From contig JBPOHW010000005.1 in the NCBI GenBank assembly GCA_052035095.1, positions 30,269 to 94,268 on the forward strand: 64,000 bases of DNA. The letters run 5' to 3'. Shown in pieces: positions 14,554 through 54,652 of the stretch (its first letter is position 1; each line of letters starts with the position of its first letter). This DNA comes from Candidatus Moraniibacteriota bacterium (lineage in GTDB: Bacteria > Patescibacteriota > Minisyncoccia > Moranbacterales > UBA1568). The position numbers and the translations under genes are program-made. The notes below the pieces were generated by a model, which saw only the letters and a list, made by a program, of their open reading frames with translations, had not been told where the DNA came from and searched no databases.

Positions 14554-14723
14554 GCCAACTGCCGACTGACAACTGACAACCGTCAGCAGCCAACCGGCAA
14601 CAGAAAACAAGAAACAAAAAATGTATGCCTCCACTCTAGCGAATTTTGAAACTTGTCGCAAGAAAACACCCCTCCAAAAAATGAAGGGGTGCTACAGGTC
14701 ACTTGCAAACCGATTTTCAGTCC

Positions 14724-28696: not shown

Positions 28697-31056
28697 TTAC
28701 TTTTGCAGTTCCGCCATGTTTACCGATCGCTTGCTGATTTTGATCATTTCCTCGTCGTGTGAAACACAAATTATCGTAGTGTCCGGATATTTCTCGTTTA
28801 TCTCACTGATAATTTTCCTTACTTCGGTTGCAGCTTGCGAATCGAGGCTTGCCGTCGGTTCATCAAGCAACATGATCTTTGCCCCTTTAACCAAAGTGCG
28901 CGCTACGCCAATCCTTACCCTCTCACCTCCCGATAAATTTTTTACTTCTTCGTCGAGTCTGCCAATAAATTTTTCCAAATGCAAATCTTCCAATACTTTC
29001 TTTATTTTTTCATAGCTTATTTCTTCTTTCGACCACAGCAAAATATTTTCACGCAATGTCATTTCATCAAAAATTTGCGGATTTTGGTTGCAGTAAGACA
29101 TGACTGAATAGATCGATTTTTTGCCGTATTTTTTTATGTTGTCATTCTTAACTCCGCCTATTTCTATTTCACCGCCACCCGGCTTATATAGACCAACTAA
29201 ATTTCGGAGCAGTGTCGATTTTCCAATTCCAGATGCTCCCGATATAGCCAAGAATTCTCCCTGCTTAATATTCATGCTTATACCGCGCAAAATATTTTTA
29301 TAGCGAAGATTTTTTATAGAAATATCAAAATTTTCCAATTCGGAAATCGGTACGCGTTCCTTTTCTTTTTCACCTTCCGGCAAATCCAGTTTTTCGTATT
29401 TTCCAAAAATTTCGTCCATCCGTTGTATATCCTGAATATAACGAGAAAATCTATTGAAATAAAGACTTACCAATTCTTGAACCGGGTAATTTAGCATGCC
29501 AGAATAAGTGATATTTGACAAAATAGCTCCACCGGAAATCATGCCGACCGCTTGAAGCGCGCCACCTACGCCAGCCGCCACGACGGTTGAAACATCAAAA
29601 GGAATCCTCCTTATCAAATCCATCTTCGTTTCTTCGACAAATCTCCCCAACGAAAGAGTATCTATTCTGTCCATCTGCCTTTTTACATCGGCGGCAATGA
29701 TCGGCGTTTCAGACGAAGTTTTAATTTCTTCAAATCCACTCTTTATCGATCCGAGACGCGTCTCTATTTTTCCCCCTCTCGTCTTTCTTTTTCATACATC
29801 GGCCAGACTTCATTATTCTGTTTTTTCGCGACTCTATACATAACAGGCAGGCTTCCAGCGCCAATTGCACCAAGAACAGGATTTATTTTCATCAAAAATG
29901 CGAGAGACATGGCTATTCCCGCTAAAGTCGGAGCAAATTCTGAAAGAGTGTCTCGTAAAATTCCCTCTGTCGCGTTTTTGCCCCTTTCCAAAGTCGCATA
30001 AATTTCGCCCAATGGTTTTTCGTGTATAAATTCAAATTCTTGAAAAAACAACGAATTGGTTATCCGTTCGTTAATTTGATGATTAATTTCATTCATCACC
30101 TTAGCCAGTTCGATTTTACTCTTCGCATCAATAAGCACTGATACCTTGTTGAGTCCGAGAAATTCCAAAAACACGGCGACATTGAACCTATCTTGCACGA
30201 TTATGTCTTGAAATAATGACGGGGCGAAACTTTCCAAACCTTTTGACGCTAAATGTCCAAGAGAAATTTTTGCTATCGCTCCTTTTTTCTCACCCAACTC
30301 ATACTCGTTCCAAAGCCGCGTGATTGTTTCAACGAGAACTCTCGGCGAATAATTTTCATCCTCGCCTTTGTCAGATCGTATAAGATCTACTAAAATTTCA
30401 ACCTCAACCTTGTCCAATGGATATCGATTTTGTAGGTCTTTTACCAACTCGGCTTTTTGTTTTCGTTGTTCCTTTTCGTCGATCTCGCCGTCTTCATCAA
30501 TCATTTTGTCCTTGTAAAAATCAGCGATATCTTTTTCCAACGACTTTGTGTTCATCACGTTCCCGATTGAATCAAAAAGCAGCCAGCATTGAGCACGTAA
30601 TTCTTCAGTATCTTCTTCAGTAAGAGATGATTCTCTTTTGTTTCGTATCTCGCTGACTAGATTCTCAATCCAGTCTTCAATAGCGCAGGAAAACTCTTCA
30701 CTATTAACATTAACAAATTCTCTGTGCGGATGCTCTTCTGATTTTTTGGCTTTCTCGTTAAAACCCTTCAAGATTTGTTTGTATTCGGTCACCAGTTCTG
30801 GCGCGATGAGTTCGCTCAACAACTTCATTTTTTCTTGTTCCTCCAAGGTCGGTTTTTCAACAGAGATCTTCTCTTGGATTGATAAACGTAAAGACAACCA
30901 ATGATCCTTGAGCGTCATCGGTCTTCCCTCTGTTTCGTCATGTTCTTCAAGAGTAAGCGGTTCCGCTTTTGCAGATTCTTTCTCTCGCTCAATTTCTCCT
31001 TTGATTGGCCTAAAAAAATCACTTTCTTTCATAGTTGTGAAACATAAAACAACCAC
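28697..31056 (-). pseudogene. Atypical ABC exporter (N-terminal ~330-aa charged domain + partial TMD + NBD) interrupted by a frameshift at a G5A5 homopolymer run (~29765-29792)
   Basis: The downstream ORF has TMD helices 5-6 plus an NBD (Walker A ISGASGIGKST, signature LSGGERVRIG, Walker B IMLLDEPTASLD). The upstream ORF (29764..31056) ends in a TMD segment homologous to ABC-exporter ICL1/TM3-4. The downstream frame stays open back to 29792 and overlaps the upstream stop (29764-29766). A single-base indel in GAGGGGGAAAAA would fuse them. Confidence 0.5.
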
Positions 31057-34821: not shown

Positions 34822-36147
34822 TCACGGCGTGAGACGTTTGACGTCTCTCGGAAAGAGGACAGCCTGTTTGATGGTGGGAAGTCCCAAGAGTTGCTGAATG
34901 GTGCGCTCCGATCCCCAGCCCCACCCGCCGTGCGGCGGGCAACCATACCGAAAGGTGTCGAGATAATTCGAGAAATCCTCCGGATTCATCCCGCGCTTCT
35001 TGATCGACTCCACCATTTTTTTGTATTCATGAATACGCTGTCCGCCAGTCGCGAGTTCCAGCCCGCGAAAGAGGAGGTCGAAGCTTTCCGTAAAGTGCGG
35101 ATCGGCGCCCGGCAAAGTATAAAACGGCCGAATGGCGGTCGGATAATGCGTCAAGAAGACAAAATCCGATCCAAATTCGCGCTTCACATACTCGCAAATC
35201 ATCCGCTCGCCCTCGGGATCGATGTCGATTTCCCCGCCTTCCATTTTCTTCCCGAATTCTTTTTCAAGAATTTGAAGCGCTTCCGTCAGCTTCATGCGCG
35301 GGATAGCGACTCTTTTGGGAGCCTCGGCGCCCCACAATTCAAGCTCTTCTTTTCCTCGTTCGCCTATTTTTTCAAACACGTCAAAAATGATGCTTTCGAG
35401 CTCGTTCATCACGTCACCGACGCCTTCAATAAACGCCATCTCGGCATCAAGACTCACGTATTCGTTCACGTGGCGCGTCGTAAAGTGCGGCTCGGCGCGA
35501 AACACCGGTCCAATCTCGAAAACTCGCTCAAACACACTTGCCCCCGCCTCCTTATAAAATTGCGGACTCTGCGCGAGAAACGCATCGCGATCAAAATATT
35601 TGATCTTGAAAAAGTTGGCGCCGCCTTCGGTCGCGGCATTCACCACCTTTGGCGTCTTCACCTCGAGAAAACCGCGCGACCGAAGCGCGTCGGCATACGC
35701 GGATACCAGTATGCCATAAAGCCGAAAAATCGCCTGAACTTTTCGATTGCGGAGCGAAAAAATGCGATTGTTGAGAAGTGTATCAAGATGAAGTTCCTCA
35801 AGACCGCCCTCAGCTATTTCAAATGGGAGCGGACTTTCGGGAGCGGAAAGAATGATGAGTTCTTCAACTTCCACTTCGATACTCCCCAGGGTATCGGCGC
35901 GCTCGGCGCCACCCGGACGAGATTTCACCACACCGATCGCCTCGATGATACACTCATTCCGGCACTCGCGCGCCGCCTCATACGCCGCGCTATGATCGGG
36001 TATTACCACCAGTTGAACCGTACCGCTTCGATCGCGAACATCGAGAAATAAAATTTTCCCGTGGTCGCGACGCATATTCACCCATCCTTTCAGGCGAACC
36101 CGTTCCCCTTTCGCACGCAACGCTTCGACAATCAGTGTTCGTTCCAT
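34822..36147 (-). CDS. aspS: Aspartyl-tRNA synthetase, archaeal/eukaryal type (AspRS2-like; possibly non-discriminating)
   Basis: 441 aa with an N-terminal OB fold, FLEVKTPKVVNAATEGGANFFKIKYFDRDAFLAQSPQFYKE (the ATEGGA motif is typical of archaeal-type AspRS, versus SDCEGAGE in AsnRS), FRAE motif 2 and GGWGWGSER motif 3. Confidence 0.7.
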   Translation of the reverse strand: MERTLIVEALRAKGERVRLKGWVNMRRDHGKILFLDVRDRSGTVQLVVIPDHSAAYEAARECRNECIIEAIGVVKSRPGGAERADTLGSIEVEVEELIILSAPESPLPFEIAEGGLEELHLDTLLNNRIFSLRNRKVQAIFRLYGILVSAYADALRSRGFLEVKTPKVVNAATEGGANFFKIKYFDRDAFLAQSPQFYKEAGASVFERVFEIGPVFRAEPHFTTRHVNEYVSLDAEMAFIEGVGDVMNELESIIFDVFEKIGERGKEELELWGAEAPKRVAIPRMKLTEALQILEKEFGKKMEGGEIDIDPEGERMICEYVKREFGSDFVFLTHYPTAIRPFYTLPGADPHFTESFDLLFRGLELATGGQRIHEYKKMVESIKKRGMNPEDFSNYLDTFRYGCPPHGGWGWGSERTIQQLLGLPTIKQAVLFPRDVKRLTP

Positions 36148-36156
36148 AACTTCTTG

Positions 36157-36600
36157 TTACTGATTATTCCCTCCGGGATTTTCATCCGCTTGCAAATGCT
36201 CAATTTCATCACTCTGCCGCGATCCGGGTTGTTTCAGAAAACGAGAAACTTCTTCGACAAGTTGCGACGGCGAAAACTCAGACTTCGAAATAAAGCCGTT
36301 CGCGCCAAGACGCAGCGCCTTTTCCCGATCCTCTCGCTCATTCAAATTGCTAAACATGACGATTTTCAAATCGGGAGCATACCCGCTTTTGGGATTTCGA
36401 ATCTGCTCCAACACTTCCATACCGCCCATCTCGGGAAGGACGATGTCAAGAAGAACGATATCAAACGGCTCAACCCGCAAAATATCAAGTACCGCCTTTC
36501 CGGAAACCGCGATACGAACATCGAAACCGGCGGCAACGAATTTCCGTTCATACATCTCCGATATCATCGGGTCATCTTCAACCAAGAGTACCTTTGACAT
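36157..36600 (-). CDS. Single-domain response regulator (CheY-like receiver)
   Basis: MSKVLLVEDDPMISEMYERKF...FDIVLLDIVLPEMGGMEVLEQIR...KIVMFSNL is a receiver domain with the phospho-acceptor Asp context. The start is placed at MSKVLL (ATG 36598-36600); the ORF-track extension reads through the upstream repeat. Confidence 0.8.
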   Translation of the reverse strand: MSKVLLVEDDPMISEMYERKFVAAGFDVRIAVSGKAVLDILRVEPFDIVLLDIVLPEMGGMEVLEQIRNPKSGYAPDLKIVMFSNLNEREDREKALRLGANGFISKSEFSPSQLVEEVSRFLKQPGSRQSDEIEHLQADENPGGNNQ

Positions 36601-36620
36601 AGATGTTTTCTTAAATAATC

Positions 36621-36749
36621 TAGGACTTACGCGTTTGAGTGCAGTTCGAGGAAAATGCGAGGAACAGAGTAAACTGTATGCGCCATACAGCGTCCCCGCC
36701 GAGGCGGGGGAACATTTGACGAAGAAATTCGCCAAACGCGTAAGTCCTA
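36621..36749. repeat. Copy A of a ~130-150-bp element with 17-bp perfect terminal inverted repeats (TAGGACTTACGCGTTTG...CAAACGCGTAAGTCCTA), flanked by TA
   Basis: TAGGACTTACGCGTTTGAGTGCAGTTCGAGGAAAATGCGAGGAAC...GTCCCCGCCGAGGCGGGGGAACATTTGACGAAGAAATTCGCCAAACGCGTAAGTCCTA. It is near-identical to 60626-60773 and related to 11649-11768, and sits in the 5' leader of the response-regulator gene. Confidence 0.75.
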
Positions 36750-36752
36750 TAA

Positions 36753-37541
36753 TCAACGGAATTTCCACTTCCACATATATCGTACCCACGACCGTATATG
36801 CTCGCGCGCGAGGCGACTCGTAAAAGGCGCCACAAACCAACGTGATCGAGCGCTCCCTCTCGCGTGATCGTGTATGACAACCGCTTCCGGCAAGTATACC
36901 ACTCGAAGACCACTCCGCCACGCCCGACGGCACAGATCGGTATCTTCAAAATACATAAAGAAGCGCTCATCAAACCCGCCCACCCGCCGATAAAAATCCG
37001 CTCGTATCATAAGGCACGACCCGATCATCCAGTCGACATCGCGAATCGTCTCGTGATCGAAGTCGGTCATAAGATACCGCCCGAGATACGCCGGCACAAG
37101 ACGCCCGAGCGATGTCCGACGTACAATCGGCGTCCACACTTTCGGAAACCGAAGGCAGGAATATTGAAGCGTCCCGTCGGGATTCAAGAGTTTCGGCCCC
37201 ATAATGCCGATATCCTCACGCTCCTTCATACCCAAAAAAAGAAGTCGGACAGCATCGGGACGAACCAAGGTGTCGGGATTCAGAATAAGGAAAAACTTCC
37301 CCGTCGCCCGCTCGGCGCCCCGATTGTTCCCGCCCCCCATTCCGAGATTCTTTCCGCTTGAAAGGAACACTGCCTCCGGAAACTCCCTCTCGAAAGAAGT
37401 ATCAAAATCAGCCGTCTCGCTATTGTCAACCACGATCGTTTCATGCGATACTCCCGAGAAATCGGCTTTCCGAAGAGAACAAAGACACCGCCGAGTTTTC
37501 TCTCGGCTTCGATAGTTAACCAGAATGATACTCACGTCCAT
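36753..37541 (-). CDS. Glycosyltransferase family 2
   Basis: MDVSIILVNYRSREKTRRCL...VVDNSE...DTD...DED are GT-A (DXD) motifs. The ORF-track N-terminal 69 aa are antisense read-through of tRNA-Arg and are discarded; the start is the ATG at 37539-37541. Confidence 0.8.
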   Translation of the reverse strand: MDVSIILVNYRSREKTRRCLCSLRKADFSGVSHETIVVDNSETADFDTSFEREFPEAVFLSSGKNLGMGGGNNRGAERATGKFFLILNPDTLVRPDAVRLLFLGMKEREDIGIMGPKLLNPDGTLQYSCLRFPKVWTPIVRRTSLGRLVPAYLGRYLMTDFDHETIRDVDWMIGSCLMIRADFYRRVGGFDERFFMYFEDTDLCRRAWRSGLRVVYLPEAVVIHDHARGSARSRWFVAPFTSRLAREHIRSWVRYMWKWKFR

Positions 37542-37633
37542 ACACCGGAAATACCGAAAAATACCAGTTTCCCCATTTCCCCAGTGTACAATACTCGCAA
37601 AAAAAAGTATACTGCCTGACGAAGAAGGCACAC

Positions 37634-37706
37634 GTCTCTGTAGCTCAGTGGATAGAGCGTCTGGTTCCGGTCCAGAAGGCCGCAGGTCCGATTCCTGCCA
37701 GGGACA
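37634..37706 (+). tRNA. tRNA-Arg (anticodon CCG)
   Basis: Manually folded: acceptor GTCTCTG/CAGGGAC (one G-U pair), D-arm GCTC-AGTGGATA-GAGC, anticodon stem TCTGG/CCAGA with loop UUCCGGU, variable AGGCC, T-arm GCAGG-TCCGATT-CCTGC, discriminator A. No CCA encoded. Confidence 0.85.
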
Positions 37707-37710
37707 CACA

Positions 37711-37737
37711 CAAAAAGCGAGTTCGACTCGCTTTTTA
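37711..37737 (+). terminator. Rho-independent terminator immediately after tRNA-Arg
   Basis: AAAAAGCGAG-TTCGA-CTCGCTTTTTAT. Confidence 0.65.
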
Positions 37738-37760
37738 TATTCGCACAAACAAAACTTCGA

Positions 37761-39407
37761 TCATCCTTTCTTCACGGGGAAATCGACGGAAAAGGTGGAG
37801 CCTTTGTTGATGCCTTCGGAGAAAACGGAAATGGTTCCGCCCTGAGCTTCCATCATGCTCTTTCCCACATAGAGCCCGAGCCCGGTACCATTGGCATAGA
37901 GCTTCCCGCTCTCCTCGCCGCGGGTAAACTTCACAAAGAGCCGCGGAATCGCTTCGGGCGCTATGCCGACGCCCGTATCCGAAACCGAGATACGAACCAT
38001 GTTTGACACACGCTCCACTCGAACGCGGACACTCCCCTTCGGCGTATATTTGATCGCGTTATCTATCAAGTTCGACACCACTTCGAACGATTTCTTGCGA
38101 TCGATCCACACCGGCGGCAACGCCTCCCCTTCGGGACACTCAAAGGAAAGCTCAAGCCCCTTCTTCTTGGCGGCAATTGCAAACGTATCGCGAAGTTCAT
38201 TCAAGAATTCACATAAATTCACTTCCGTATATTCATAGACGAGTCGCCCCGCCTCCATACGAGAAATATTGAGAAGATCTTCAACCAAGTGAATAATACG
38301 CTCATTGGACGTATAAATTTTTTTGAGAATATCGGCGATACCGGCGGGCACCGCGCCATATGACCCCTCAAGAAGAAGCGAGACGAATCCCTTGATGGCG
38401 GTAAGCGGCGTCCGCAACTGATGCGACGCAATCGAGATAAATTCCGTTTTCGATTGGTCGAGCCGCTTCAACTCCACGTTCGCCGCCGCGAGCTTGTCCG
38501 TCACCACCTGCAACTCCTCCTTCCGCCGAATTTCATTCTTCACCGACCGGATGAGCAATATCCCGAATCCGATGGATAGAAGAAAGGTAACCGAAGTCAA
38601 AATATAATTGGTCGTTGTCTTGATGAAAAAAAGCTGAGCGCCGATAAGAACCGAAAGCCCAATCACCAACGCCTGCGCAGCAAGAAGCTTAATATTGAAT
38701 ATCTGGTATCGGACAATGAGATACGCCAAAAGCCCCATAAAAACCGGCATGCCGAAGAGTCCGTATTGGAGATATTCCCAATGCTCGGTAACACTTCCCA
38801 AAATATTCATCCCGGAAAAAGAGAGAAGAAAGAAAATTGAACCAACGGAAAGAAGCACCACCTTCTTTCTCTCTTCTCCGGAAGAATGAGCTATTTTATA
38901 AAGAAGAAATCCGAGAAGCCAGAGAAAAAAGAATACTTCGAGAAAATAGAAGTAGTATATGATCGGTCCCTGCGTCGCCTCGCAAACGGCCACATCAAAA
39001 CCCTTCAAATTAATACCCGTTGGAATCAACGCTAAAAATGGAAGAAAGAGGAAAGCGACAAACATTTTCCATCGAAGCAACACATCGCGCTTTTCCAAGA
39101 AGAGATACACGAAGTACAGCGTAAACACCGAAACGAAATTTTCAAGAATGTTAACAAACGACCACACAAACATAATGAAGCGACTGTCATTATTTGTCCA
39201 AAGTACAAGGTCTGAAAGCGCCCAAAAAGTAAAAAAAATAGATACGAAAAGAAGAGACTGAGCGGAAATATCACGACCCTTCATCCAAACAAAAAATCCG
39301 AGAAACAATGAAACAAGAATTGCCGGGAAATGTGAATAATACAAAAGTGGATGTGCTTCTTCTGAAAATATAAAAAACAAAGGATCTGAAATGTCTGTAC
39401 AGAACAT
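37761..39407 (-). CDS. Sensor histidine kinase with large N-terminal polytopic membrane domain
   Basis: About 8 TM helices, then HisKA (SHQLRTPLTAIKGF, phospho-His) and HATPase_c (GTGLGLYVGKSMMEAQGG) motifs. Confidence 0.85.
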   Translation of the reverse strand: MFCTDISDPLFFIFSEEAHPLLYYSHFPAILVSLFLGFFVWMKGRDISAQSLLFVSIFFTFWALSDLVLWTNNDSRFIMFVWSFVNILENFVSVFTLYFVYLFLEKRDVLLRWKMFVAFLFLPFLALIPTGINLKGFDVAVCEATQGPIIYYFYFLEVFFFLWLLGFLLYKIAHSSGEERKKVVLLSVGSIFFLLSFSGMNILGSVTEHWEYLQYGLFGMPVFMGLLAYLIVRYQIFNIKLLAAQALVIGLSVLIGAQLFFIKTTTNYILTSVTFLLSIGFGILLIRSVKNEIRRKEELQVVTDKLAAANVELKRLDQSKTEFISIASHQLRTPLTAIKGFVSLLLEGSYGAVPAGIADILKKIYTSNERIIHLVEDLLNISRMEAGRLVYEYTEVNLCEFLNELRDTFAIAAKKKGLELSFECPEGEALPPVWIDRKKSFEVVSNLIDNAIKYTPKGSVRVRVERVSNMVRISVSDTGVGIAPEAIPRLFVKFTRGEESGKLYANGTGLGLYVGKSMMEAQGGTISVFSEGINKGSTFSVDFPVKKG

Positions 39408-39493
39408 AAAAGAAATTTTTATTCCCTCCTCGGGGTCATTTTAACATAAAACAAGTATCCCTGCTCTAAAAGGCCAACTTCAAAGGAAAATAT

Positions 39494-40429
39494 CTACAAT
39501 AAGTAAACTCCAAAAGCAACAACTGCTATAGAACATATTTTAACACATAAACCGCGAAATTGATCTCGATATATTTTTTGTACAAACAGTGTCTGAAAAC
39601 GAAAAATCCACAAAAATACTATCAATAGAGCGCTAAACAACATCACAAAAGCCGGAATCAGGGTTTCCAAGACCGCAACAAAAGACGGTGAAGAGGAAAG
39701 GGAGAGCGCTCGTTGCGAACACAAAAATCCGAGAAGCGCCAGCCCTTCGCTTATCAAAAACACAAACCAATATCGTCGCGCCAGCTGAAACACTTTTGCA
39801 TTTCGTACTTTCACCGCCCACACAAGCGGCGCCACCAAAAATGCACCGAGTGAGAAAAGGAGATATCCGCTCCAAAATCCACCTTCTCCGACCAACTCAT
39901 ACGCGTGGGATTGAATTACCATACTTGCGGCAAGAGAGATATTCGCAAACAACATAGTCCCGGCGATAGACCAAAATCCTTCCGCGCGAATCGATGAGTC
40001 CATTGAAAGAAAAAATCCGCCGAGAAAAGCGACAAAAATTCCAACATACTGAATCCATTCAAGCCGTTCCCCAAGCGTGACCCATGAAAAAACCGGAACG
40101 AGGGGAAGTGAAAGCGTCCACAGTACCTGCGCCAGCGAGACATCGTTCTTTTGAAAGAGGGCTTTAAAATAAAAGTAGAAAGCCCCCATATAGAGGAAGC
40201 CCCCAAGAAGAAAAAGAACAAAAGGAAACATCGGAAGAAGCTGAAATTCCAAGATACCGAAAGGAACGGCAATCCATGGAACGATCTGAAAAAAACTCGA
40301 CAACAAAAGACCGTCAAGCGGTCCATCATAGATATCCTCAACAAAATACACGTCAATCAAATTGACAATCGCCCACAAGGCCGGCGCGCACAGCGCCAAG
40401 AGAAACCAATTATCCCAGAGAAAGTGCAT
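39494..40429 (-). CDS. Polytopic membrane protein, function unknown (first gene of AT-rich island)
   Basis: 311 aa with about 9 predicted TM helices and no diagnostic motif. Lower GC than the backbone. Confidence 0.4.
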   Translation of the reverse strand: MHFLWDNWFLLALCAPALWAIVNLIDVYFVEDIYDGPLDGLLLSSFFQIVPWIAVPFGILEFQLLPMFPFVLFLLGGFLYMGAFYFYFKALFQKNDVSLAQVLWTLSLPLVPVFSWVTLGERLEWIQYVGIFVAFLGGFFLSMDSSIRAEGFWSIAGTMLFANISLAASMVIQSHAYELVGEGGFWSGYLLFSLGAFLVAPLVWAVKVRNAKVFQLARRYWFVFLISEGLALLGFLCSQRALSLSSSPSFVAVLETLIPAFVMLFSALLIVFLWIFRFQTLFVQKIYRDQFRGLCVKICSIAVVAFGVYLL

Positions 40430-40486
40430 ATCGAAGGTAATCAGTAAAAAACAAAACTAAAACTATTTATAAAAATCAATTGTTTT

Positions 40487-40942
40487 TTACTTTTCCTGTA
40501 TGTTCAAGATTCTCTCTTGCACCCTATCGAGCTCCTCATCAGATACCTTTGGCCCTTCAACTGTTGTAATATAGCCAAGATATTCTGGATGAAATTCAAA
40601 GTGCTTGCTCCAGATATTCGTCTCATCCGCAAGATTTCCATGAAGCGGATACAGCTTTGCATGAACATAGGCAACGCCGGTACCCTCAAATACCATAGCA
40701 ACACGAGACACGCCAAGTGCTTTTTCAAGAATTTTTGCCACCGTTCTCGCCGCACCAAGCAAACCTTGATAGTCATTCTCCTTTAAGTCAAATACGTAGT
40801 TCCCAACATCACTCTTTGGAATCACGACAGTTACTCCAATGGTATTGGGAAATGGCGTCAAAAAAGCAAGGTAGTCATTATCTTCCCATACCTTCCACGA
40901 TTTCAATTCTCCAGAGAGAATTCTTTCAAAGAGAGTGCTCAT
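40487..40942 (-). CDS. HIT-superfamily-like protein with degenerate histidine triad
   Basis: The N-terminal FERILSGEL...WEDNDYLAFLTPFPNTIGVTVVIPK matches the HIT fold (IFCKII..E.P..V.ED....AF.DI.P.APGH.LVIPK). The HxHxHxx triad position reads VHAKLYP, with only one His retained. Confidence 0.45.
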   Translation of the reverse strand: MSTLFERILSGELKSWKVWEDNDYLAFLTPFPNTIGVTVVIPKSDVGNYVFDLKENDYQGLLGAARTVAKILEKALGVSRVAMVFEGTGVAYVHAKLYPLHGNLADETNIWSKHFEFHPEYLGYITTVEGPKVSDEELDRVQERILNIQEK

Positions 40943-40983
40943 AAACTCGATTAGCTCAATTCAGAAAGCGCTTTTTCCGCATG

Positions 40984-42393
40984 CTATTTCTTTCGCTTCT
41001 CAATCCAAACCTGTCGTAGCGTTTCATCGGATAACTCGCTCGGAGCGCCCATAAGCAAATCTTTTGCCTCGCCTGTTTTTGGAAATGCGATTACTTCACG
41101 AATACTTTCTTCACCAAGAATAGTAGAGATAAGCCGATCCATTCCAAGCCCCGTTCCAGCGTGCGGTGGAACCCCAAGAGAAAATGCACGAAGTATATGA
41201 CCAAATTTATTCTGTATTTCCTCTTCCCTAAGTCCGATCGACTCAAATATGGTTTTTTGTAGCCCTGCATCATGTATACGAACACTGCCAGAACTAATTT
41301 CATACCCATTCAGAACAAGATCAAACGCCGTGGAACGAACCGAGAGCGGATCGCTTTTTATTCGAGATATATCTTCGTCGAGCGGCATGGTAAATGGGTG
41401 ATGCGCGGATGAAATTCCAGTCTTCGAAGTGCTATCTTCTTCAAAAAGCGGAAACTCCGTCACCCAACAAAATGCCAACGTGTCACTATCTTTTTTCTCT
41501 CGCATATCCGGTTTGTCACACCCATAATTCTTCATAGAATCCGCATAGGTCATTTTTGGAAACGGCGTAGAAAGAATTTTCTTGTTCGGAAATATCTTCG
41601 AAACAAGCGCTATCATAGAATCCTCAACCATTTTCATCACATCACCCTCATCAACAAAAGACATCTCAATGTCAAATTGAGTAAATTCCGGCTGACGATC
41701 CTGTCGCTGATCCTCATCTCGAAAGCACCGTGCCACCTGAAAATATTTCCCCATACCGGAGACCATGAGAAGTTGTTTGAACTGTTGTGGAGATTGCGGA
41801 AGAACATAAAACTGTCCATGATGAATTCTCGAAGGAACGATAAATTCTCGAGCACCCTCCGGAGTTCCCTTAGTAAGGATAGGTGTCTCCACCTCACAAA
41901 ATCCATTCTCGCTGTAGTAATTCCGAAGAAAGAGCATTGTTTCATGGCGAGACCGGATATTTCTTTGCATTCGATCCGATCGGAGATCAAGATATCGGTG
42001 TTTCATGCGAAGAGACTCGTCTATCGCATTCGTGTCATCGTCAACGGAAAATGGAAGCGCTGTCGCAGGCGAAAAAATATGAAGAGTTTCAGCGACAAGT
42101 TCTCTGTCACCGAGAGGCTGATTTGGATTTATGAGATTTTTTTGTCGCTCAACGACGGTTCCGGAAACTTGTATGACCGACTCGAGGGAAATCTTCTTTA
42201 TTTGTTCAAATGTTTCTCCGGTACACACAACCTGAATTTTCCCCGAAGGGTCACGAAGATCACAAAAAGCAACCTTTCCGTGCAGTCGGAGGTTGTGTAC
42301 CCACCCAGAAAGAATAGTCTTTTTTCCGACACGTTCCCGACTCTCAGCTATAGAGCAATCATTCTTTCTATAGGTTTTCATAATGGTTTCCAT
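40984..42393 (-). CDS. aspS: Aspartyl-tRNA synthetase, bacterial type lacking the GAD insertion domain
   Basis: 469 aa with an N-terminal OB fold, RYLDLR, QSPQQFKQLLMVSG, FRDEDQRQDRQPEFTQFDIEMSF (motif 2), bacterial-specific LAFCWVTEFPLFEE and AHHPFTMP, GGSVRIHD and GLGMDRL (motif 3). There is no roughly 100-aa GAD domain. Its start overlaps the stop of the upstream fusion gene. Confidence 0.8.
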   Translation of the reverse strand: METIMKTYRKNDCSIAESRERVGKKTILSGWVHNLRLHGKVAFCDLRDPSGKIQVVCTGETFEQIKKISLESVIQVSGTVVERQKNLINPNQPLGDRELVAETLHIFSPATALPFSVDDDTNAIDESLRMKHRYLDLRSDRMQRNIRSRHETMLFLRNYYSENGFCEVETPILTKGTPEGAREFIVPSRIHHGQFYVLPQSPQQFKQLLMVSGMGKYFQVARCFRDEDQRQDRQPEFTQFDIEMSFVDEGDVMKMVEDSMIALVSKIFPNKKILSTPFPKMTYADSMKNYGCDKPDMREKKDSDTLAFCWVTEFPLFEEDSTSKTGISSAHHPFTMPLDEDISRIKSDPLSVRSTAFDLVLNGYEISSGSVRIHDAGLQKTIFESIGLREEEIQNKFGHILRAFSLGVPPHAGTGLGMDRLISTILGEESIREVIAFPKTGEAKDLLMGAPSELSDETLRQVWIEKRKK

Positions 42394-44381
42394 TAAGGAA
42401 TAATATGTGTCTGGCTTCTTGGAAATAGAACTACGTCTTCAACGGTATTATACCCAAGTAATTTCGCAACAACCCGATCAATTCCAAGACAAAAACCGCC
42501 GTGCGAAACCGGCGTCTTGAAGTAATCGAGATAAAACTGAAAGTTTTCAGGATTTACTCCTGACATCTTCATTCTTTCAACAATACGAGAAGCATCGGTT
42601 TCTCGTACGGCGCCAGAACAAATTTCCCAGCCCCTATAAATAATATCAAAGGACTCTGTATAGTGCTCGTCCACCTCTTTCGTATAAAACTTTTTCGTGA
42701 GATTCGGATAATGAACAATCGCAAAAATATCCCAGCTACGATTTTCTTTTAAGAAATTTGCCAATTCGTATTCCCTGCTATAACCAAGATCATCCCCGTA
42801 CGAATATTCAGTATCAACATGAGCTGTCACTATCTCAAATACCTCGTCATAACTTATGGATTGTATTTCCTTCGCAATAACATTTTCTTGCGCAATAAGT
42901 TGCCCTTCCAATAATCTCTCCGAGGAAAAATTCAGTATTTCTCCAGCAACAGCAAGTAGAGCATTGATTCCTTCATTTTTCTTCAGTTGCATTTCAACAT
43001 CAAGCCCCCATGCTTCTGATAAATGCCTTGCAGTAGGACTCGTCTCCTCACGCCAAAATGGTCCATACTCAAAAACGCGCCTCATCCCAGACAGAACAAG
43101 CATTTGCTTATACATCTGATTAGACTGTCGCAAAAAAAGTTTTCTTTCATACCATTGAACAGAGAACAATTCCTCACTTGCATTGTTTCTCGGTGGGTCA
43201 GTTGATATTGGTACTACATACGGAGTATGCACTTCCGTATAAACCTCCTTTTCTTGCAGATAATCTCGGAAGCCCTTTTCAAAAACGCTTCTCAAAAAAG
43301 CAACGTGCGCTAAATTTTTATTGAGCCTCTTCTTGCTCAATTCTAAGTTTAAGCCGACCTCCACACTTATCAACTCTTTTTCTATAGCACGATACACCTC
43401 ACCGACACGTTCTCTTATAATCTCATTTGCCTTTTCAATTTGAGCAACTCGATCCCTATATCGTTGAGCAGTCAGTTTTTTTATGGTCGCTATTGAATAG
43501 ATAGACGCGCTTTTGTTCAAAGATGCAAGCAAAATCGTATTCTGAGGGTTTCCAACATCGATAATTTTTGGTATATGGAACAACTTATTTATTTTCTCTG
43601 ACTCTTCATAAGAAAGAACATCCGAAAGACAGAAGAAAACGGCATCGTACTCGCCTATTTTATCGAGATACTCACTAAATTCGACTCTGGCTCTTGCCAC
43701 TCCGGTTTCAACCAATTTATTTGCTCGAGACTCTGTCCTATTTGTAACATCAATAGATTCAAAACCTTTTTCATGTAAAACATGTGCAATGAGGCTCCCC
43801 ATAGCTCCACATCCGACAATCAGAATGCACTGAGACTGATCGCCATTTACATTTTGAAGCAACTCAACCGCTTGTCGACCGACTGAAACGTTTCCAATCC
43901 CTATCATTGTTTGTTCTTTTACGGAAAGCGCTACTCTTTTGGCTGAACGAAAAAGAACCTCCATTACCGGACCAGAGGCTTTAAATTTTTTACTGCTCGT
44001 CAAAGCAAATCGAACCTGTCCAAGTACTTGACCATCCCCAATGGTCACGCTCTTTAATCCGGAAGACACTTGCAAGAGATGCTCGACACATTTGTATTCA
44101 CGGTAAAGGGCGATGTCAGATCCGCCGAAGCCATCTGGAGAGATACTAACTAATCTCCACGTTTTTACAATTTTTTCCAAATCAAAAACCCCCCAGACAA
44201 AAATCTCCGTGCAATTACATTTTTGCAAAATGACTACCTCCTCTACACAGGGGAGTTTCTTAAATTCACTATATCCCCGCGAAATATCTTTAATATTACA
44301 GGCATTGACGATATCCTGAGTGTTATTATTTAGACTTATTGAAATACAATAAAGGTCTCTTTTTTGCAAAGTTTTCCCCAT
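42393..44381 (-). CDS. Fusion protein: glutamyl-tRNA reductase (HemA/GluTR)-like N-terminal half + class IIb aminoacyl-tRNA-synthetase-like catalytic core (AspRS/AsnRS/AsnA-type, no anticodon-binding domain)
   Basis: N-half: VVILQKCNCTEIFVW (GluTR catalytic-Cys motif TCNRTELY, with Arg replaced by Cys), VEHLLQVSSGLKSVTIGDGQVLGQVRFAL (versus GluTR [23 protein letters not shown]), ILIVGCGAMGSLIAHVL...NRTESRANKLV (NADPH Rossmann domain, versus LLVGAGET...ANRTRERAQ) and KIIDVGNPQN (versus DIAVPRD). C-half: EVHTPYVV...RQSNQMYKQMLVLSG, YGPFWREETSPTARHLSEAWGLDVEM (motif 2), SFDIIYRGWEICSGAVRE and GGFCLGIDRVVAKLLG (motif 3). Confidence 0.7.
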   Translation of the reverse strand: MGKTLQKRDLYCISISLNNNTQDIVNACNIKDISRGYSEFKKLPCVEEVVILQKCNCTEIFVWGVFDLEKIVKTWRLVSISPDGFGGSDIALYREYKCVEHLLQVSSGLKSVTIGDGQVLGQVRFALTSSKKFKASGPVMEVLFRSAKRVALSVKEQTMIGIGNVSVGRQAVELLQNVNGDQSQCILIVGCGAMGSLIAHVLHEKGFESIDVTNRTESRANKLVETGVARARVEFSEYLDKIGEYDAVFFCLSDVLSYEESEKINKLFHIPKIIDVGNPQNTILLASLNKSASIYSIATIKKLTAQRYRDRVAQIEKANEIIRERVGEVYRAIEKELISVEVGLNLELSKKRLNKNLAHVAFLRSVFEKGFRDYLQEKEVYTEVHTPYVVPISTDPPRNNASEELFSVQWYERKLFLRQSNQMYKQMLVLSGMRRVFEYGPFWREETSPTARHLSEAWGLDVEMQLKKNEGINALLAVAGEILNFSSERLLEGQLIAQENVIAKEIQSISYDEVFEIVTAHVDTEYSYGDDLGYSREYELANFLKENRSWDIFAIVHYPNLTKKFYTKEVDEHYTESFDIIYRGWEICSGAVRETDASRIVERMKMSGVNPENFQFYLDYFKTPVSHGGFCLGIDRVVAKLLGYNTVEDVVLFPRSQTHIIP

Positions 44382-44551
44382 ACAACAAAAAAAATTCAGT
44401 AAGCAACCGACAAAAAGAAGTTATCAGGAAAGTAAACGAAAGACAAGTGCAGGCTTCTTCACTACGAAATTGCAAGACATCAGAACATCCATCCCCATCG
44501 TTTCAGCCGTTTGCTATCCTTTCTTTATAAATAGCTCCCTGATATAGGAAA

Positions 44552-45877
44552 TTAGGAAACCCATCCCCATTTTTGTAACAAAGGAAGCTCTTTTTCTGCA
44601 AATTGAACGCCGATATCTGTTCGGTAAAACATCTTCGGAACAATAATCTTTTCAACAATGCAATATACCTCTCCCCTTGCTTTTTCTATAGAATCTCCAA
44701 ATCCGGTAACGTAGAGTATAAACCCGTTGCTTCCGGAAATATAGTAATTCTTTCCCTCAGTTCCTCTATCCTTGGAAATTTCTTCAAAATGAACTCGACT
44801 TCGTTCCTCATGAGAAAGTGGGCAACTAAAGAAAACTCTCACACCTTTTGATGAATATATCGATGATATACCTTCATAGGGAAATGGTGGCGCCGCTACA
44901 GAGACAACTACGCCAAATCCGTGTTTATACTTCAAATCATACGATTTTCCATCCGCCACGGCACTCAAAAATTCCGTCCATGGGGAAAGATGGATTTCCG
45001 CTTGCAGCTGAGTGGAGGGACAACCAAGTCGCGAGGTAACCTCAAGCGGATACAGAGCCTTTTTATCAAGGATGCAATTTATGTCAATATCGCCTCTAAA
45101 ATCAATTTTCTGAAGATATGATTTCATCTTGGCAAGCGTCTGACAAAAAAGCTGGTTATTTTCATTATCGGTATACCACATCACCGTTCCCATTTCTCCG
45201 GTTTTCGGTCCGATACCATCGTTAAAAAGACTTTTGTGCTCAACATTGATTTCGATTGGTCCCACCCAATCCTTTCCATTAAAATAACGAGCAACCCCAA
45301 CCTCTATTCCCATCACCTTTTTCTGCAGGTCGATATCTTGAATTCCAACCTCATCATATTTTTTCAACACACTCAAAACATCCTCCCCATCATCAACTTT
45401 TCCAACATAATTAAGCGAACTTTGGTGACTATTCTGCTTTATCACCCACTGGCCCGGATGTTTTTTTAAAAATGCTATCGCCTTTTTCGGGCTCTCAAAA
45501 CGAAACGACGGGAGTATGGCAATCCCGCATTCCTCTAAAATTTTTTGTCCGTACTCGCGATTTTTTTCGAGACGATCTCCAAACGCGCTTCCGCCAAAAA
45601 CGCGGTAGCCTTCTTTTCGCAGGCGATCCTGTTCTCGACCAAACCCGACATCGTCAAAAACAATAAGCCCCTTCTTCCCCACCCATTCAAGCTCTTTTTT
45701 CCAGTCATTCGTCTTTTTGACCATACCATCGAGACATTCGCGCCGCTTCGGATCGCGAATATACATTTTCACGTCATTCCCCTCGCCCTTCAGGCGAACA
45801 CACAGATCCGCCCCAATTAATTCCCCCGAAACAAAGAGTATCCGCATAAAACAAAAAAGATAATTCCTCTCAATCAA
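44552..45877 (-). CDS. PurD-like ATP-grasp ligase (glycinamide-ribonucleotide-synthetase family fold)
   Basis: MRILFVSGELIG (PurD-type N-domain start), ATP-grasp core, GPKTGEMGTV (versus PurD GPNTGGMGA) and a C-terminal GFGDSIEKARGEVY (versus PurD GDTLEEAR..AY). The likely start is the internal MRILF Met. Confidence 0.6.
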   Translation of the reverse strand: MIERNYLFCFMRILFVSGELIGADLCVRLKGEGNDVKMYIRDPKRRECLDGMVKKTNDWKKELEWVGKKGLIVFDDVGFGREQDRLRKEGYRVFGGSAFGDRLEKNREYGQKILEECGIAILPSFRFESPKKAIAFLKKHPGQWVIKQNSHQSSLNYVGKVDDGEDVLSVLKKYDEVGIQDIDLQKKVMGIEVGVARYFNGKDWVGPIEINVEHKSLFNDGIGPKTGEMGTVMWYTDNENNQLFCQTLAKMKSYLQKIDFRGDIDINCILDKKALYPLEVTSRLGCPSTQLQAEIHLSPWTEFLSAVADGKSYDLKYKHGFGVVVSVAAPPFPYEGISSIYSSKGVRVFFSCPLSHEERSRVHFEEISKDRGTEGKNYYISGSNGFILYVTGFGDSIEKARGEVYCIVEKIIVPKMFYRTDIGVQFAEKELPLLQKWGWVS

Positions 45878-53770: not shown

Positions 53771-54652
53771 TCAGTGACCTGAAGAGAGTGCAAATGTTTG
53801 TACAAGTTCTTTTAAATTTTCAAAAGAGGCGCGTATTTTTTCAGCAGTCTTACCGGTTCGATACCACGCGATAATACCACACGCCTTATCCACATTGTAA
53901 GCATTTCCACCGCGACATTCTGGGGTATTGACATATCCTCGCAACTCAATTTCTTCTGGAGTATCGGCATAGGGAACAAAGGCTGCACCAATCCAAACAA
54001 GTTTATCTTTATATCGAGCTGTATATGTTGGACCCTCTAATGAGGTATTTAGGCTATTAAATAAAGAAGGATCAGATATAAACTTTACACCTGATTTGTT
54101 GACAACCAAAACATTATCATTTTGAATTTTAGGTTGTATGGTTGAGATTGTTACAGAATCTCCTTTAAAGTTGCAAACCTTGCTAGGATTATTTGGGATG
54201 TTTAAATCCAATAATTTAATTTCCAAATTAATTGGTGCGCTAGAGAATTTAAGGACAACATTATATAATCCCCATTGATATTTTTTCGTTAAATTAATCA
54301 TCATCGGAAGAGGAACTTCACAAGGAGGGAGGCTAATGCTATTTCTGTTGCCATTTTCAACTACAACAGCTCCCCAGTCAGCCGGATAGTCAAACGATAA
54401 TCCTAGATCTTTATTTTGATATGTTTTCCAACTTTCAATCGGTTCAGCAACAACAGGGGTGTTTTTTTCACTCGAATCTATAATGGGCGGTGCCGAATTT
54501 TCTTTCGTCCGTGGCGTATTTTGAACACCAGCTCTATCAATGAGTCTTCCACATTGATAGCTCACCACAAGAGCAACTCCCAAAAACAGAACTACAGCCA
54601 TACCAATCCACAAAACTTTCTTTTGAGTTTTCTCCATAAGGCATATTTTCAA
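53771..54652 (-). CDS. Membrane-anchored hypothetical protein (low-GC)
   Basis: N-terminal TM helix (VLWIGMAVVLFLGVALVV), then a roughly 250-aa Asn/Ser-rich extracytoplasmic region. No known motif. Confidence 0.4.
   Translation of the reverse strand: MKICLMEKTQKKVLWIGMAVVLFLGVALVVSYQCGRLIDRAGVQNTPRTKENSAPPIIDSSEKNTPVVAEPIESWKTYQNKDLGLSFDYPADWGAVVVENGNRNSISLPPCEVPLPMMINLTKKYQWGLYNVVLKFSSAPINLEIKLLDLNIPNNPSKVCNFKGDSVTISTIQPKIQNDNVLVVNKSGVKFISDPSLFNSLNTSLEGPTYTARYKDKLVWIGAAFVPYADTPEEIELRGYVNTPECRGGNAYNVDKACGIIAWYRTGKTAEKIRASFENLKELVQTFALSSGH

Follow-up and report, generated by a model that had tools for sequence, protein, structure and literature searches.

A reductase-synthetase fusion beside an apparently imported aspartyl-tRNA synthetase in Moranbacteria hints at a route from activated aspartate to an aldehyde

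Bacterial-type and archaeal-type aspartyl-tRNA synthetases (AspRSs) occur together in one genome in Thermus thermophilus and Deinococcus radiodurans, where the bacterial AspRS1 discriminates and the archaeal-type AspRS2 is non-discriminating and acts with GatCAB (PMC4206432, PMC2330236). In GluTR (HemA), the catalytic cysteine has a role in thioester formation (PMC3778395). Other systems relevant for comparison are the class IIb cores without the N-terminal OB anticodon-binding domain, such as archaeal asparagine synthetase A (AsnA) and EpmA/GenX, and the extra aminoacyl-tRNA synthetases of biosynthetic clusters (supply or self-resistance, tRNA-dependent natural products). The locus described here resembles each of these in part and differs from each.

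The window, that is, the whole stretch of 64,000 nucleotides that was analysed, belongs to the chromosome of a tiny, uncultured member of the Patescibacteria (Candidatus Moranbacteria/Moraniibacteriota). The relevant features are the following:

34822..36147, minus strand: archaeal/eukaryal-type AspRS, 441 aa (NF003483, TIGR00458, 1B8A/1N9W alignment)
39494..40429, minus strand: EamA-family transporter (PF00892, 35 bits); backbone, borders the insertion site
40487..40942, minus strand: HIT-like protein, 151 aa (PF01230, 23.4 bits)
40984..42393, minus strand: bacterial, CPR-type GAD-less AspRS, 469 aa (NF001750, TIGR00459)
42393..44381, minus strand: fusion protein, 662 aa (Pfam, AF2, Foldseek)
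ca 42396..43325, minus strand: anticodon-less archaeal-type AspRS catalytic core of the fusion (tRNA-synt_2, 5e-51)
ca 43326..43493, minus strand: long helix of the fusion, 56 residues (AF2 helix, residues 297-352)
ca 43494..43886, minus strand: NADPH Rossmann domain of the fusion (Shikimate_DH, 8e-14)
ca 43887..44381, minus strand: GluTR-like catalytic domain of the fusion (GlutR_N, 2e-21)
44217..44219, minus strand: codon of Cys55 of the fusion, in the GluTR-like domain
44552..45877, minus strand: PurD-like ATP-grasp ligase (GARS_C and GARS_A matches); backbone, the other border of the insertion site

A first-pass annotation of this DNA had claimed two AspRSs of different evolutionary types in the one window, and the models bear this out. 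Both open reading frames that it named are present on the minus strand, with the archaeal-type motif ATEGGA and the bacterial signature AHHPFTMP that it quoted, and both proteins pass the curated cut-offs of their own type. The archaeal-type enzyme reaches 508.8 bits against NF003483 (cut-off 353) and 402.1 bits against TIGR00458 (cut-off 368.4), and the bacterial-type one 602.5 bits against NF001750 (cut-off 443) and 566.3 bits against TIGR00459 (cut-off 373.85). The pairwise identity of the two is 28%, which means that they are not recent duplicates, and by motif and model check neither of them is an AsnRS. For the archaeal-type enzyme this identity was rejected, the score of 257 bits being far under the 414 of the AsnRS models. 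The remark that no AsnRS is visible also stands, since none was found among the ca 40 larger minus-strand open reading frames scanned with Pfam or NCBIfam; the same scan found no GatCAB, and besides the two AspRSs the sole class IIb enzyme was a LysRS (13063..14661).

The archaeal-type enzyme aligns over its full length with the T. kodakarensis AspRS (1B8A) and the T. thermophilus AspRS2 (1N9W), with ca 345-350 bits (345 for the latter). Its 80 orthologous loci (55-85% identity) have the synteny response-regulator/aspS(/mreB) in common, and the identity of its homologs, which carry the name Candidatus Moranbacteria aspartate--tRNA(Asn) ligase, declines smoothly from 88% to 59%. Because of this smooth series and the conserved synteny, the sequences identify it with good confidence as the lineage's own, vertically inherited AspRS, and it is presumably the one that carries out the translational charging. 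It may be non-discriminating and work with GatCAB, on which the anticodon-domain positions offer no more than a weak hint.

The bacterial-type enzyme retains the complete set of AspRS active-site motifs and 149 of the 156 columns that are conserved at 93% or more in 113 ordinary CPR AspRSs. It is thus predicted to be catalytically intact and of the ordinary GAD-less CPR form. The absence of the GAD insertion domain, to which the first-pass annotation had drawn attention, is real, as the Pfam scan gives no match to PF02938 and the bacterial AspRS model matches in two stretches that skip the insertion, but it is not special: GAD-less AspRSs of 440-479 aa are found in more than 100 ordinary CPR clusters, and for Patescibacteria (CPR) an AspRS of ca 460 aa without this domain is the norm. 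The start of the gene overlaps the stop codon of the fusion or lies at most 12 nt away; the true start may be the ATG at 42381, 12 nt downstream, which would give a protein of 465 aa, like P0020.

The AT-rich block in which this gene had been placed is also real, with a GC3 of 0.35-0.46 across 39494..45877 compared to 0.51-0.61 in the flanks. However, it does not give the extent of the island, which is smaller, because the ATP-grasp and EamA genes within the block are backbone. The EamA gene has orthologs at the equivalent place in L025 (72%), L107 (91% DNA identity), L024 and L083, and in L024 and L083 the ATP-grasp gene directly adjoins it, while L066 and L075 have the ATP-grasp gene and lack the module. 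(The ATP-grasp protein itself scores 95 bits against TIGR00877, compared to a cut-off of 288.) Since the two genes adjoin in L024, the insertion can be defined: the bacterial-type AspRS, the fusion and the HIT-like gene have been inserted between them. The HIT-like gene, whose histidine triad is degenerate (YVHAKLY), is in the inserted segment of the window's strain only, being absent from the conspecific L107 and from L024.

That the bacterial-type copy is island-borne, as had been claimed, agrees with its distribution. At the 80 related loci with the archaeal-type gene (0.99 Mb, 34 of them with at least 8.3 kb upstream), neither a bacterial AspRS nor the fusion was found (0/80), and the close relatives L024 and L025 are without the bacterial copy. 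Its homologs run from 98 to 68% identity and then go straight to 57% or below in other CPR phyla. These comparisons argue strongly that the gene is foreign and was acquired horizontally along with the adjacent fusion gene. Thermus and Deinococcus have the same combination of types. Here the archaeal-type enzyme is ancestral and syntenic and the bacterial-type one is the imported extra, which moreover has no GAD domain, like other CPR AspRSs, and is coupled to a reductase fusion.

We now consider the fusion, the C-terminal half of which is a third AspRS-like catalytic core in the window, missed by the first-pass annotation. The AF2 model (pLDDT 83.8) is matched by Foldseek to AspRS (3NEL, 8e-24) and to GluTR (1GPJ, 5e-18), and supports an architecture of two lobes joined by a long helix. 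The N-terminal part is, judging from its motifs, GluTR-like, and apparently keeps both the cysteine that forms the thioester and the site for NADPH. Namely, the nucleophilic cysteine lies in a C-N motif aligned with the GluTR active site (1GPJ, 4N7R), including the catalytic cysteine of the Arabidopsis enzyme, and a conserved Ser...G-[DE]-x-Q motif, a Rossmann domain with GxGxxG and NRT, and a long 'spinal' helix are also shared. K-C-N and G-D-x-Q-V are invariant in the fusion family (35/35), which retains GxGxxG and NR as well. There are also differences. The score of 155 bits is under the HemA cut-off of 209.55, K-C-N-[ACSG] replaces the [ST]-C-N-R of GluTR, so that the canonical CNR motif has lost its arginine, G-D-x-Q replaces G-E-x-Q, an AspRS core takes the place of the lost dimerisation domain (PF00745), and the family occurs in CPR bacteria in neighbourhoods without tetrapyrrole genes.

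The C-terminal part is predicted to be the entire catalytic core of an archaeal-type AspRS, in which every residue that binds Asp or ATP is conserved; the core arginines R593, R636 and R444 are found in 35, 34 and 31 of the 35 family members, respectively. The flipping loop has been rebuilt, with TDPP as its invariant motif, and QSPQ is changed to QSNQ. Like AsnA and EpmA/GenX, the core has no N-terminal OB domain and conserves motifs 2 and 3. However, it is far closer to archaeal AspRS (169 bits for 3NEL, 237.9 for NF003483) than to AsnA (35-53 bits for the archaeal structures 3P8T and 1NNH, 101 for NF005052). It also differs from the anticodon-less class IIb paralogs in being covalently joined to a thioester reductase. 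A literature search on the fusion found no paper, and this combination of a GluTR-like domain and a synthetase core is a rare, undescribed enzyme.

The link between the bacterial-type copy and the fusion, which had been noticed in this window, extends well beyond it. In 14 of its 17 distinct contexts the fusion is accompanied by a flanking AspRS, the exceptions being L001, L010 and L017, and the flanking AspRSs fall nearly all within two clades (bootstrap 99 and 97), the window's copy being in clade A (bootstrap 99). The same adjacency is found in several phyla of the CPR and with AspRSs of two independent clades, a recurrence far beyond chance. An SDR gene lies between the two in 10 of the 17 contexts, and at the SDR-less loci L008 and L017 an Fe-alcohol dehydrogenase (Fe-ADH) is found in its place. 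In the 64-kb window no SDR, Fe-ADH or amidohydrolase partner was found, and no fusion module was found to contain a dedicated tRNA. The tie between AspRS and fusion is not absolute, however. In the conspecific strain L107 (97-98% DNA identity) the fusion has given way to an unrelated cassette of six genes and the same AspRS is still there, and in L104 the AspRS is intact and the fusion disrupted, so the AspRS can persist alone at least in the short term. P0025, which also falls in clade A, has a non-module context.

The apparently imported AspRS beside the fusion hints at a new route from activated aspartate to an aldehyde. We propose, at about an even chance, that the pair makes an amino aldehyde by reducing activated aspartate, in the form of Asp-tRNA or Asp-AMP. 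Aspartate would be activated as Asp-tRNA(Asp) by the full-length AspRS of the module and/or as Asp-AMP by the fusion core, the acyl group would be transferred to Cys55, and NADPH would reduce the thioester, giving an amino aldehyde derived from aspartate. Most other versions of the module have an adjacent SDR or Fe-ADH, which could reduce this further to the amino alcohol. The AspRS of the module would then feed a side pathway, instead of or besides translation. Several points count against this proposal. With a complete Asp-activating core of its own, the fusion has no obvious need of a second AspRS. The persistence of the AspRS in L107 and L104, the lack of an SDR, Fe-ADH or amidohydrolase partner in the window, the lack of a dedicated tRNA in the modules and the place of P0025 in clade A speak against it as well.

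Another option, which we consider unlikely, is that the fusion, aided by the SDR or Fe-ADH at loci that have one, produces an inhibitor of AspRS, perhaps a stable mimic of aspartyl adenylate like an aspartol adenylate formed by the anticodon-less core, and that the adjacent full-length AspRS is the producer's insensitive replacement. Such replacement enzymes are known for producers of mupirocin, albomycin, borrelidin or agrocin 84. The classic pattern is a small gene cluster of variable content that holds a second copy of the target synthetase and adjoins an exporter, here EamA, and a foreign second synthetase accompanied by an exporter and tailoring enzymes is what the locus shares with biosynthetic clusters, although we know of none that couples AspRS to a GluTR-like reductase. 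The AspRS outlasts the loss or breakage of the fusion, like orphan immunity genes, in the clade B AspRSs the amino-acid pocket has undergone fixed substitutions (HHPFT to HNPFS, I373N, Q379L), the TDPP and QSNQ changes of the fusion core occur with its binding residues kept, and some versions of the locus contain HIT-like, GNAT and S66-peptidase genes. However, the clade A copy of the window, with its 149 of 156 conserved columns, has an unchanged pocket without resistance-type substitutions, and the archaeal-type AspRS of the host would need protection too. The degenerate HIT triad also speaks against this option, the S66 protein is LdcA-like and has a genuine Ddl as its neighbour, in keeping with housekeeping of the cell wall, and no inhibitor is known.

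It is also conceivable, but improbable, that the fusion is a tRNA-independent aspartate reductase, in which the aspartyl adenylate of the core (alpha, or beta as in AsnA) passes directly to Cys55 and is reduced as in carboxylic-acid reductase, the neighbouring AspRS being merely co-regulated. With beta-activation the product would be aspartate-4-semialdehyde, or homoserine with the SDR or Fe-ADH, bypassing aspartokinase and ASA dehydrogenase. A core without an anticodon-binding domain that keeps every adenylation residue is consistent with this, as are the precedent of archaeal AsnA acting on free aspartate, the three contexts without an adjacent AspRS, and the fact that the commonest extra partner is an alcohol dehydrogenase. 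On the other hand, the full-length AspRS in 14 of 17 contexts, with clades of its own, is left unexplained, the core is nearer to AspRS than to the AsnA models, and GluTR-type domains have, to our knowledge, aminoacyl-tRNAs as their sole known substrates.

Finally, ordinary translation with two AspRSs, the bacterial-type one discriminating for tRNA(Asp) and the archaeal-type one non-discriminating and serving GatCAB, with the adjacency to the fusion incidental, would fit the apparently full functionality of both enzymes, the type combination seen in Thermus and Deinococcus (PMC4206432, PMC2330236), the persistence of the AspRS in L107 and the lack of an AsnRS among the scanned open reading frames of the window, but it is quite improbable given the recurrent adjacency and the recent insertion of a copy whose absence from the relatives means that the lineage manages on the archaeal-type enzyme alone.

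The two aspartyl-tRNA synthetases (AspRS) encoded in the window are of different types, as had been proposed in the first-pass annotation, and the bacterial-type one lies next to a reductase fusion that is itself half AspRS, a point absent from that annotation. The genes relevant to the discussion are the following:

13063..14661, LysRS, the third class IIb gene of the window
34822..36147, minus strand, archaeal-type AspRS of 441 aa (ORF1)
39494..40429, minus strand, EamA gene
40487..40942, minus strand, HIT-like gene
40984..42393, minus strand, bacterial-type AspRS of 469 aa (ORF2)
42393..44381, minus strand, fusion of 662 aa (GluTR-like domain, NADPH domain, helix and AspRS-like core)
44552..45877, minus strand, PurD-like ATP-grasp gene

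Both synthetases score above the curated cut-offs of their own type. ORF1 reaches 508.8 bits with the NCBIfam model for archaeal/eukaryal-type AspRS (NF003483, cut-off 353) and 402.1 with TIGR00458 (cut-off 368.4), and it stays below the cut-offs of the other classes, that is, AsnRS (257 vs 414), bacterial AspRS (211 vs 443) and likewise LysRS. It consists of an OB anticodon-binding domain (PF01336, residues 17-100) and a class IIb core (PF00152, residues 122-435) with no GAD insertion, has the C-terminal FPRD..L.P motif of archaeal-type AspRS, and can be aligned over its full length with T. kodakarensis AspRS (350 bits to 1B8A) and T. thermophilus AspRS2 (345 bits to 1N9W). The scores of ORF2 are 602.5 bits with NF001750 (cut-off 443) and 566.3 with TIGR00459 (cut-off 373.85), and the bacterial signatures reported for it earlier are confirmed by alignments to the solved bacterial AspRSs 6WOM and 6HHV, in which QSPQ, FRDED..RQPEFTQ, HHPFT, GSVRIHD and PPH.G.G.DR are all present. 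The identity between the two is 28%, which rejects recent duplication, and neither of them is an AsnRS, since both fall far under the AsnRS model cut-offs and the third class IIb gene encodes LysRS. The genes of the window are nearly all on the minus strand, and the ~40 larger minus-strand ORFs scanned in the 64 kb include no AsnRS, in agreement with the earlier reading, and no Gat subunit.

ORF1 is identical to the database protein P0287, and its homologs form an unbroken identity gradient from 88% down to 59%, many of them carrying the name aspartate--tRNA(Asn) ligase and coming from Candidatus Moranbacteria or Moraniibacteriota. A metagenome scan gave 80 orthologous loci (55-85% identity); in 48 of these, aspS is preceded by a response-regulator gene, and in some it is followed by mreB/mreC. 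Judged from the sequences, ORF1 is the organism's native AspRS, and for annotation purposes the archaeal-type enzyme is the native one in Moranbacteria. In the alignment, ORF1 has N24 and T87 at the positions of W26 and K85 of the T. kodakarensis enzyme, which have been described as determinants of tRNA discrimination; these residues are compatible with, and no proof of, relaxed tRNA recognition. At the position of W26, T. thermophilus AspRS2 has a His.

ORF2, identical to the database protein P0407, has a different distribution. Among the matches listed, a few close relatives at 98-68% identity are followed by a jump to 57% or less, where the proteins come from other CPR (Patescibacteria) phyla, namely Magasanikbacteria, Sungbacteria, Berkelbacteria and Parcubacteria. 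The earlier observation that ORF2 lacks the GAD domain is correct, as there is no PF02938 match and the match to the bacterial AspRS model is split into two stretches around GAD. The notion that this loss marks a specialised enzyme was, however, rejected. The best 120 AspRS clusters for ORF2 are also GAD-less (422-479 aa), and among them are proteins from several CPR phyla that carry the name aspartate--tRNA ligase; a GAD-less AspRS of ~460 aa is thus the ordinary CPR form, typical of the lineage, and should be annotated as normal.

The AT-richness described around ORF2 is real, with GC3 of 0.35-0.46 over 39494..45877 compared to 0.51-0.61 in the flanks. The idea of an island holds in so far as ORF2 is inserted, but the island does not span the entire AT-rich block. 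At L024, a related locus with an 85% identical ORF1, the ATP-grasp and EamA genes are directly side by side, whereas in the window the fusion, ORF2 and the HIT-like gene stand between them, and the insertion is therefore at most 40431..44551. By this synteny, the ATP-grasp and EamA genes are backbone despite their AT-richness. A bacterial-type AspRS or a fusion was found in none of the 80 Moranbacteria-like loci (0.99 Mb in total, 34 of them reaching at least 8.3 kb upstream). The bacterial-type AspRS is also missing from L024 and from L025, another locus with an 85% identical ORF1; the insertion site is strain-variable. Among the matches listed (120 per search), the conspecific strain is the only one common to the ORF1-type and ORF2-type searches, which is weak evidence on how often genomes combine the two types. 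Upstream of its EamA ortholog, L025 encodes a radical-SAM enzyme and, as a separate protein of 377 aa, a class IIb aaRS core (L025:204-2483), and neither fusion nor bacterial AspRS.

The conspecific strain, L107, has a backbone of 97-98% DNA identity, an identical ORF1 and an ORF2 that differs at 8 of 465 residues. ORF2 is at the same site there, but a 6.3-kb cassette (L107:4044-9940, corresponding to 42391..44867 of the window) takes the place of the fusion, and the HIT-like gene is absent. The cassette encodes an HD hydrolase, a methyltransferase, a 388-aa protein with a faint AlaRS-core match, an LdcA-like S66 peptidase, a 377-aa protein that is an anticodon-less AsnRS/AsnA-like core, and a genuine Ddl. 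In the Moraniibacteriota assembly L104 (L104:5058-6780), the fusion gene is broken into two ORFs, one of 226 aa that holds GlutR_N and one of 323 aa that holds the core. Compared with the sister assembly L105 (L105:3714-5702), in which the fusion is whole, ~270 bp of the sequence for the NADPH domain are gone; the AspRS of L104 is intact and identical to that of L105. The insertion site is a hot spot that varies between strains and in which aaRS paralogs are frequent.

We now turn our attention to the fusion itself. Its Pfam matches are GlutR_N (2e-21), an NADP Rossmann domain (8e-14) and the class IIb aaRS core (5e-51), which occupies residues 354-662. In the AlphaFold model (mean pLDDT 83.8), a 56-residue helix (297-352) links the Rossmann domain to the core, and Foldseek retrieves archaeal AspRS 3NEL (8e-24) and GluTR 1GPJ (5e-18). 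Each of the 50 listed chains covers about half of the model (query-normalised TM-score at most 0.43), so none of them spans both halves. The part of T. kodakarensis AspRS 3NEL that aligns with the core begins at residue 137 and reaches the C-terminus; it comprises the entire catalytic domain but not the OB domain, and the fusion has no match to PF01336. The core scores best with archaeal AspRS (237.9 bits), followed by AsnRS (139.7) and AsnA (101). A class IIb core without an OB domain resembles asparagine synthetase A, but the fusion core is not a member of that family, its 101 bits comparing with a cut-off of 368 for the AsnA models (NF005052-55). By alignment, the core retains the Asp- and ATP-binding residues of AspRS, the counterparts of Q195, K198, R217, D233, E235 and R489 of the E. 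coli enzyme, while an invariant TDPP motif stands where AspRS has its flipping loop, and QSNQ is found in place of QSPQ.

The N-terminal half resembles GluTR/HemA in having a nucleophilic Cys in a C-N motif and an NADPH-binding domain. It differs in that the Arg of C-N-R and the G-E-x-Q-I motif are missing, the GluTR dimerisation domain PF00745 has no match, and the score with the HemA model TIGR01035 (155 bits) is under the cut-off of 209.55. In the alignment to Arabidopsis GluTR (stCNRmEiyv vs qkCNCtEifv), Cys55 takes the position of the catalytic Cys; the thioester mechanism of GluTR has been described (PMC3778395, PMC10144233). In all 35 full-length members of the fusion family, K54-C55-N56, G115-D116-x-Q118-V119, G190/G192 and R593 are invariant, and R636 (34/35), R444 (31/35), Q419, S420 and Q422 are nearly so; the NADPH-site motifs GxGxxG and NR[TS] are conserved. 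The canonical active-site motif of GluTR is [ST]-C-N-R, the Arg of which reportedly binds the side-chain carboxylate of glutamate in the M. kandleri structure. In the 35 fusion members, the residue following C-N is C, A, S or G and never R, and the second motif is G-D-x-Q-V instead of the canonical G-E-x-Q-I.

The fusion family is rare, with only 12 clusters among 5.8 billion proteins in a word-indexed search and ~35 full-length representatives among 1.84 billion in an exhaustive one. Its halves are also found as standalone proteins (GluTR-like ones of ~340-460 aa and cores of ~310-340 aa, in the set of search matches P0163, P0167-P0169, P0171, P0173 and P0175), some of which may be contig-end fragments, and the same set contains a 914-aa protein with a fusion-type core at its C-terminus. 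The literature searched contains no description of a fusion of a GluTR-like domain with an AspRS core or of its AspRS/SDR module, and nothing relevant on GAD-less CPR AspRS or on GluTR homologs in natural-product pathways.

When 17 distinct genomic contexts of the fusion are compared, a full-length AspRS flanks it in 14, being of the GAD-less CPR type in 13 and GAD-containing in one (L004). A short-chain dehydrogenase (SDR) lies between the two in 10 contexts, and an iron-type alcohol dehydrogenase (Fe-ADH) is found immediately upstream in the SDR-less loci L008 and L017. Amidohydro_2 occurs in 5 contexts and an M17 peptidase in 2. None of the 20 loci inspected has a tRNA gene within its module. 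In the window, ORF2 follows the fusion so closely that its first ATG overlaps the fusion's stop codon; counted to an alternative ATG, the gap is 12 nt. The tie between ORF2 and the reductase fusion suggested previously is thus recurrent, although not strict: the module AspRS can outlive the fusion, which is replaced in L107 and broken in L104, and L106 has such an AspRS outside any module. In a neighbour-joining tree of the flanking AspRSs with 113 ordinary CPR AspRSs, the former fall into clade A (bootstrap 99; the window, L006, L008 and P0020-P0026, with L106 as the member outside a module) and clade B (bootstrap 97; nine SDR-type modules), which never cluster together. Each fusion subgroup pairs with the AspRSs of one clade, KCNC-type fusions with those of clade A and KCNA-type fusions with those of clade B. 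As a separate observation, the divergent fusion of L004 (L004:5788-13034) and L005 has many neighbouring ORFs without family match and is flanked by the GAD-containing AspRS, a ThiF-family protein and an M29 peptidase; a further archaeal-type AspRS core, of 341 aa and with a score of 274 bits to NF003483, is also present there.

Three features point to a reductive pathway that passes through an aldehyde: an alcohol dehydrogenase recurs in the modules, the Cys and NADPH sites are intact, and the substrate motif is altered. On the simplest reading, aspartate would first be activated, as Asp-tRNA(Asp) by the module AspRS, as Asp-AMP by the fusion core, or both, and the acyl group would next be transferred to Cys55 of the fusion. 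Reduction of the thioester by NADPH would then yield an amino aldehyde, which in most module versions may be converted to the alcohol by the SDR or by Fe-ADH as its non-homologous stand-in. We tentatively propose, with confidence well short of even, that the fusion founds another class of aminoacyl-tRNA reductases besides GluTR, being an 'aspartyl-tRNA reductase' that carries an AspRS-derived core in the same chain and is supplied by a dedicated AspRS. More broadly, the module can be described as a variant of two known kinds, the GluTR-type thioester reductases and the pathways of aaRS paralogs, and there is a realistic chance that it carries out a new tRNA-dependent reaction. Its product could be an aspartyl-adenylate mimic that targets AspRS in host cells or in neighbouring ones.

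GluTR, whose known role is in the synthesis of haem and chlorophyll, is to our knowledge the only enzyme that reduces an aminoacyl-tRNA. If the proposal is right, tRNA-dependent (or adenylate-dependent) amino-acid reduction would be extended to aspartate in bacteria that make no tetrapyrroles, Patescibacteria would convert aspartate into an amino aldehyde or amino alcohol by a tRNA-dependent route of a new kind, and a new non-translational job would be added for aaRS paralogs. The module, with its two or three genes, is compact and amenable to direct in vitro work.

Another option is that the module AspRS is a self-resistance copy, which we consider unlikely. That the AspRS survives the loss of the fusion fits a resistance or immunity role about as well as a supply role. 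However, of the 156 columns of the alignment in which ordinary CPR AspRSs show at least 93% conservation, the clade A enzymes, including ORF2, keep 149, so that ORF2 looks like a normal AspRS, and ligand-pocket substitutions relative to housekeeping orthologs are not found in this clade. They are seen only in clade B, the SDR-type modules elsewhere (for example L002:7850-9238 and L011:7693-9078), where 109 of the 156 columns are kept and fixed changes occur at otherwise invariant positions: HHPFT to HNPFS, I373N, Q379L, and also at K175, G176 and E183 (ORF2 numbering). For clade B, these substitutions suggest altered binding of a substrate or inhibitor. Immunity of the microcin-C kind, considered for the HIT, S66 and GNAT neighbours, is retained only within the self-resistance alternative, because the histidine triad of the HIT-like protein is degenerate (YVHAKLY vs HxHxHxx) and the S66 protein is LdcA-like and stands beside the genuine Ddl.

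A tRNA-independent aspartate reductase was also considered and seems rather unlikely.

Genomes with AspRSs of both types have been described before (PMC4206432, PMC2330236). A Thermus-like pair of discriminating and non-discriminating enzymes is a decidedly unlikely explanation here: the persistence of the AspRS after fusion loss would fit an ordinary translational function roughly as well as a supply role, but in a Thermus/Deinococcus-type system with GatCAB both genes would be stable, lineage-wide parts of the translation apparatus, while the bacterial-type copy of the window is a strain-variable insertion with no counterpart in the 80 related loci, L024 or L025. A second AspRS should thus not automatically be annotated as one half of such a pair.

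Finally, some further features of the window should be mentioned. A scan for promoters and terminators was uninformative, with promoter-like sites at chance level. Other AT-rich patches indicate that the chromosome is compositionally mosaic:

21041..22054, thymidylate synthase
28697..31056, ABC ATPase and a 430-aa ORF without family match
53771..54652, a 293-aa ORF without family match (GC3 0.28)

The M17 (leucyl) aminopeptidase at 7556..8965 (minus strand) is 46% identical to the M17 enzyme directly downstream of the SDR-type modules in L002 and L013. A tRNA-Arg(CCG) gene at 37634..37707 (plus strand) lies within the 5' end of a long GT2 ORF (36753..37748). The start of this glycosyltransferase is therefore probably further downstream, as in the 262-aa versions of L104 and L107, and the tRNA gene is conserved in the related loci L006, L024 and L025.
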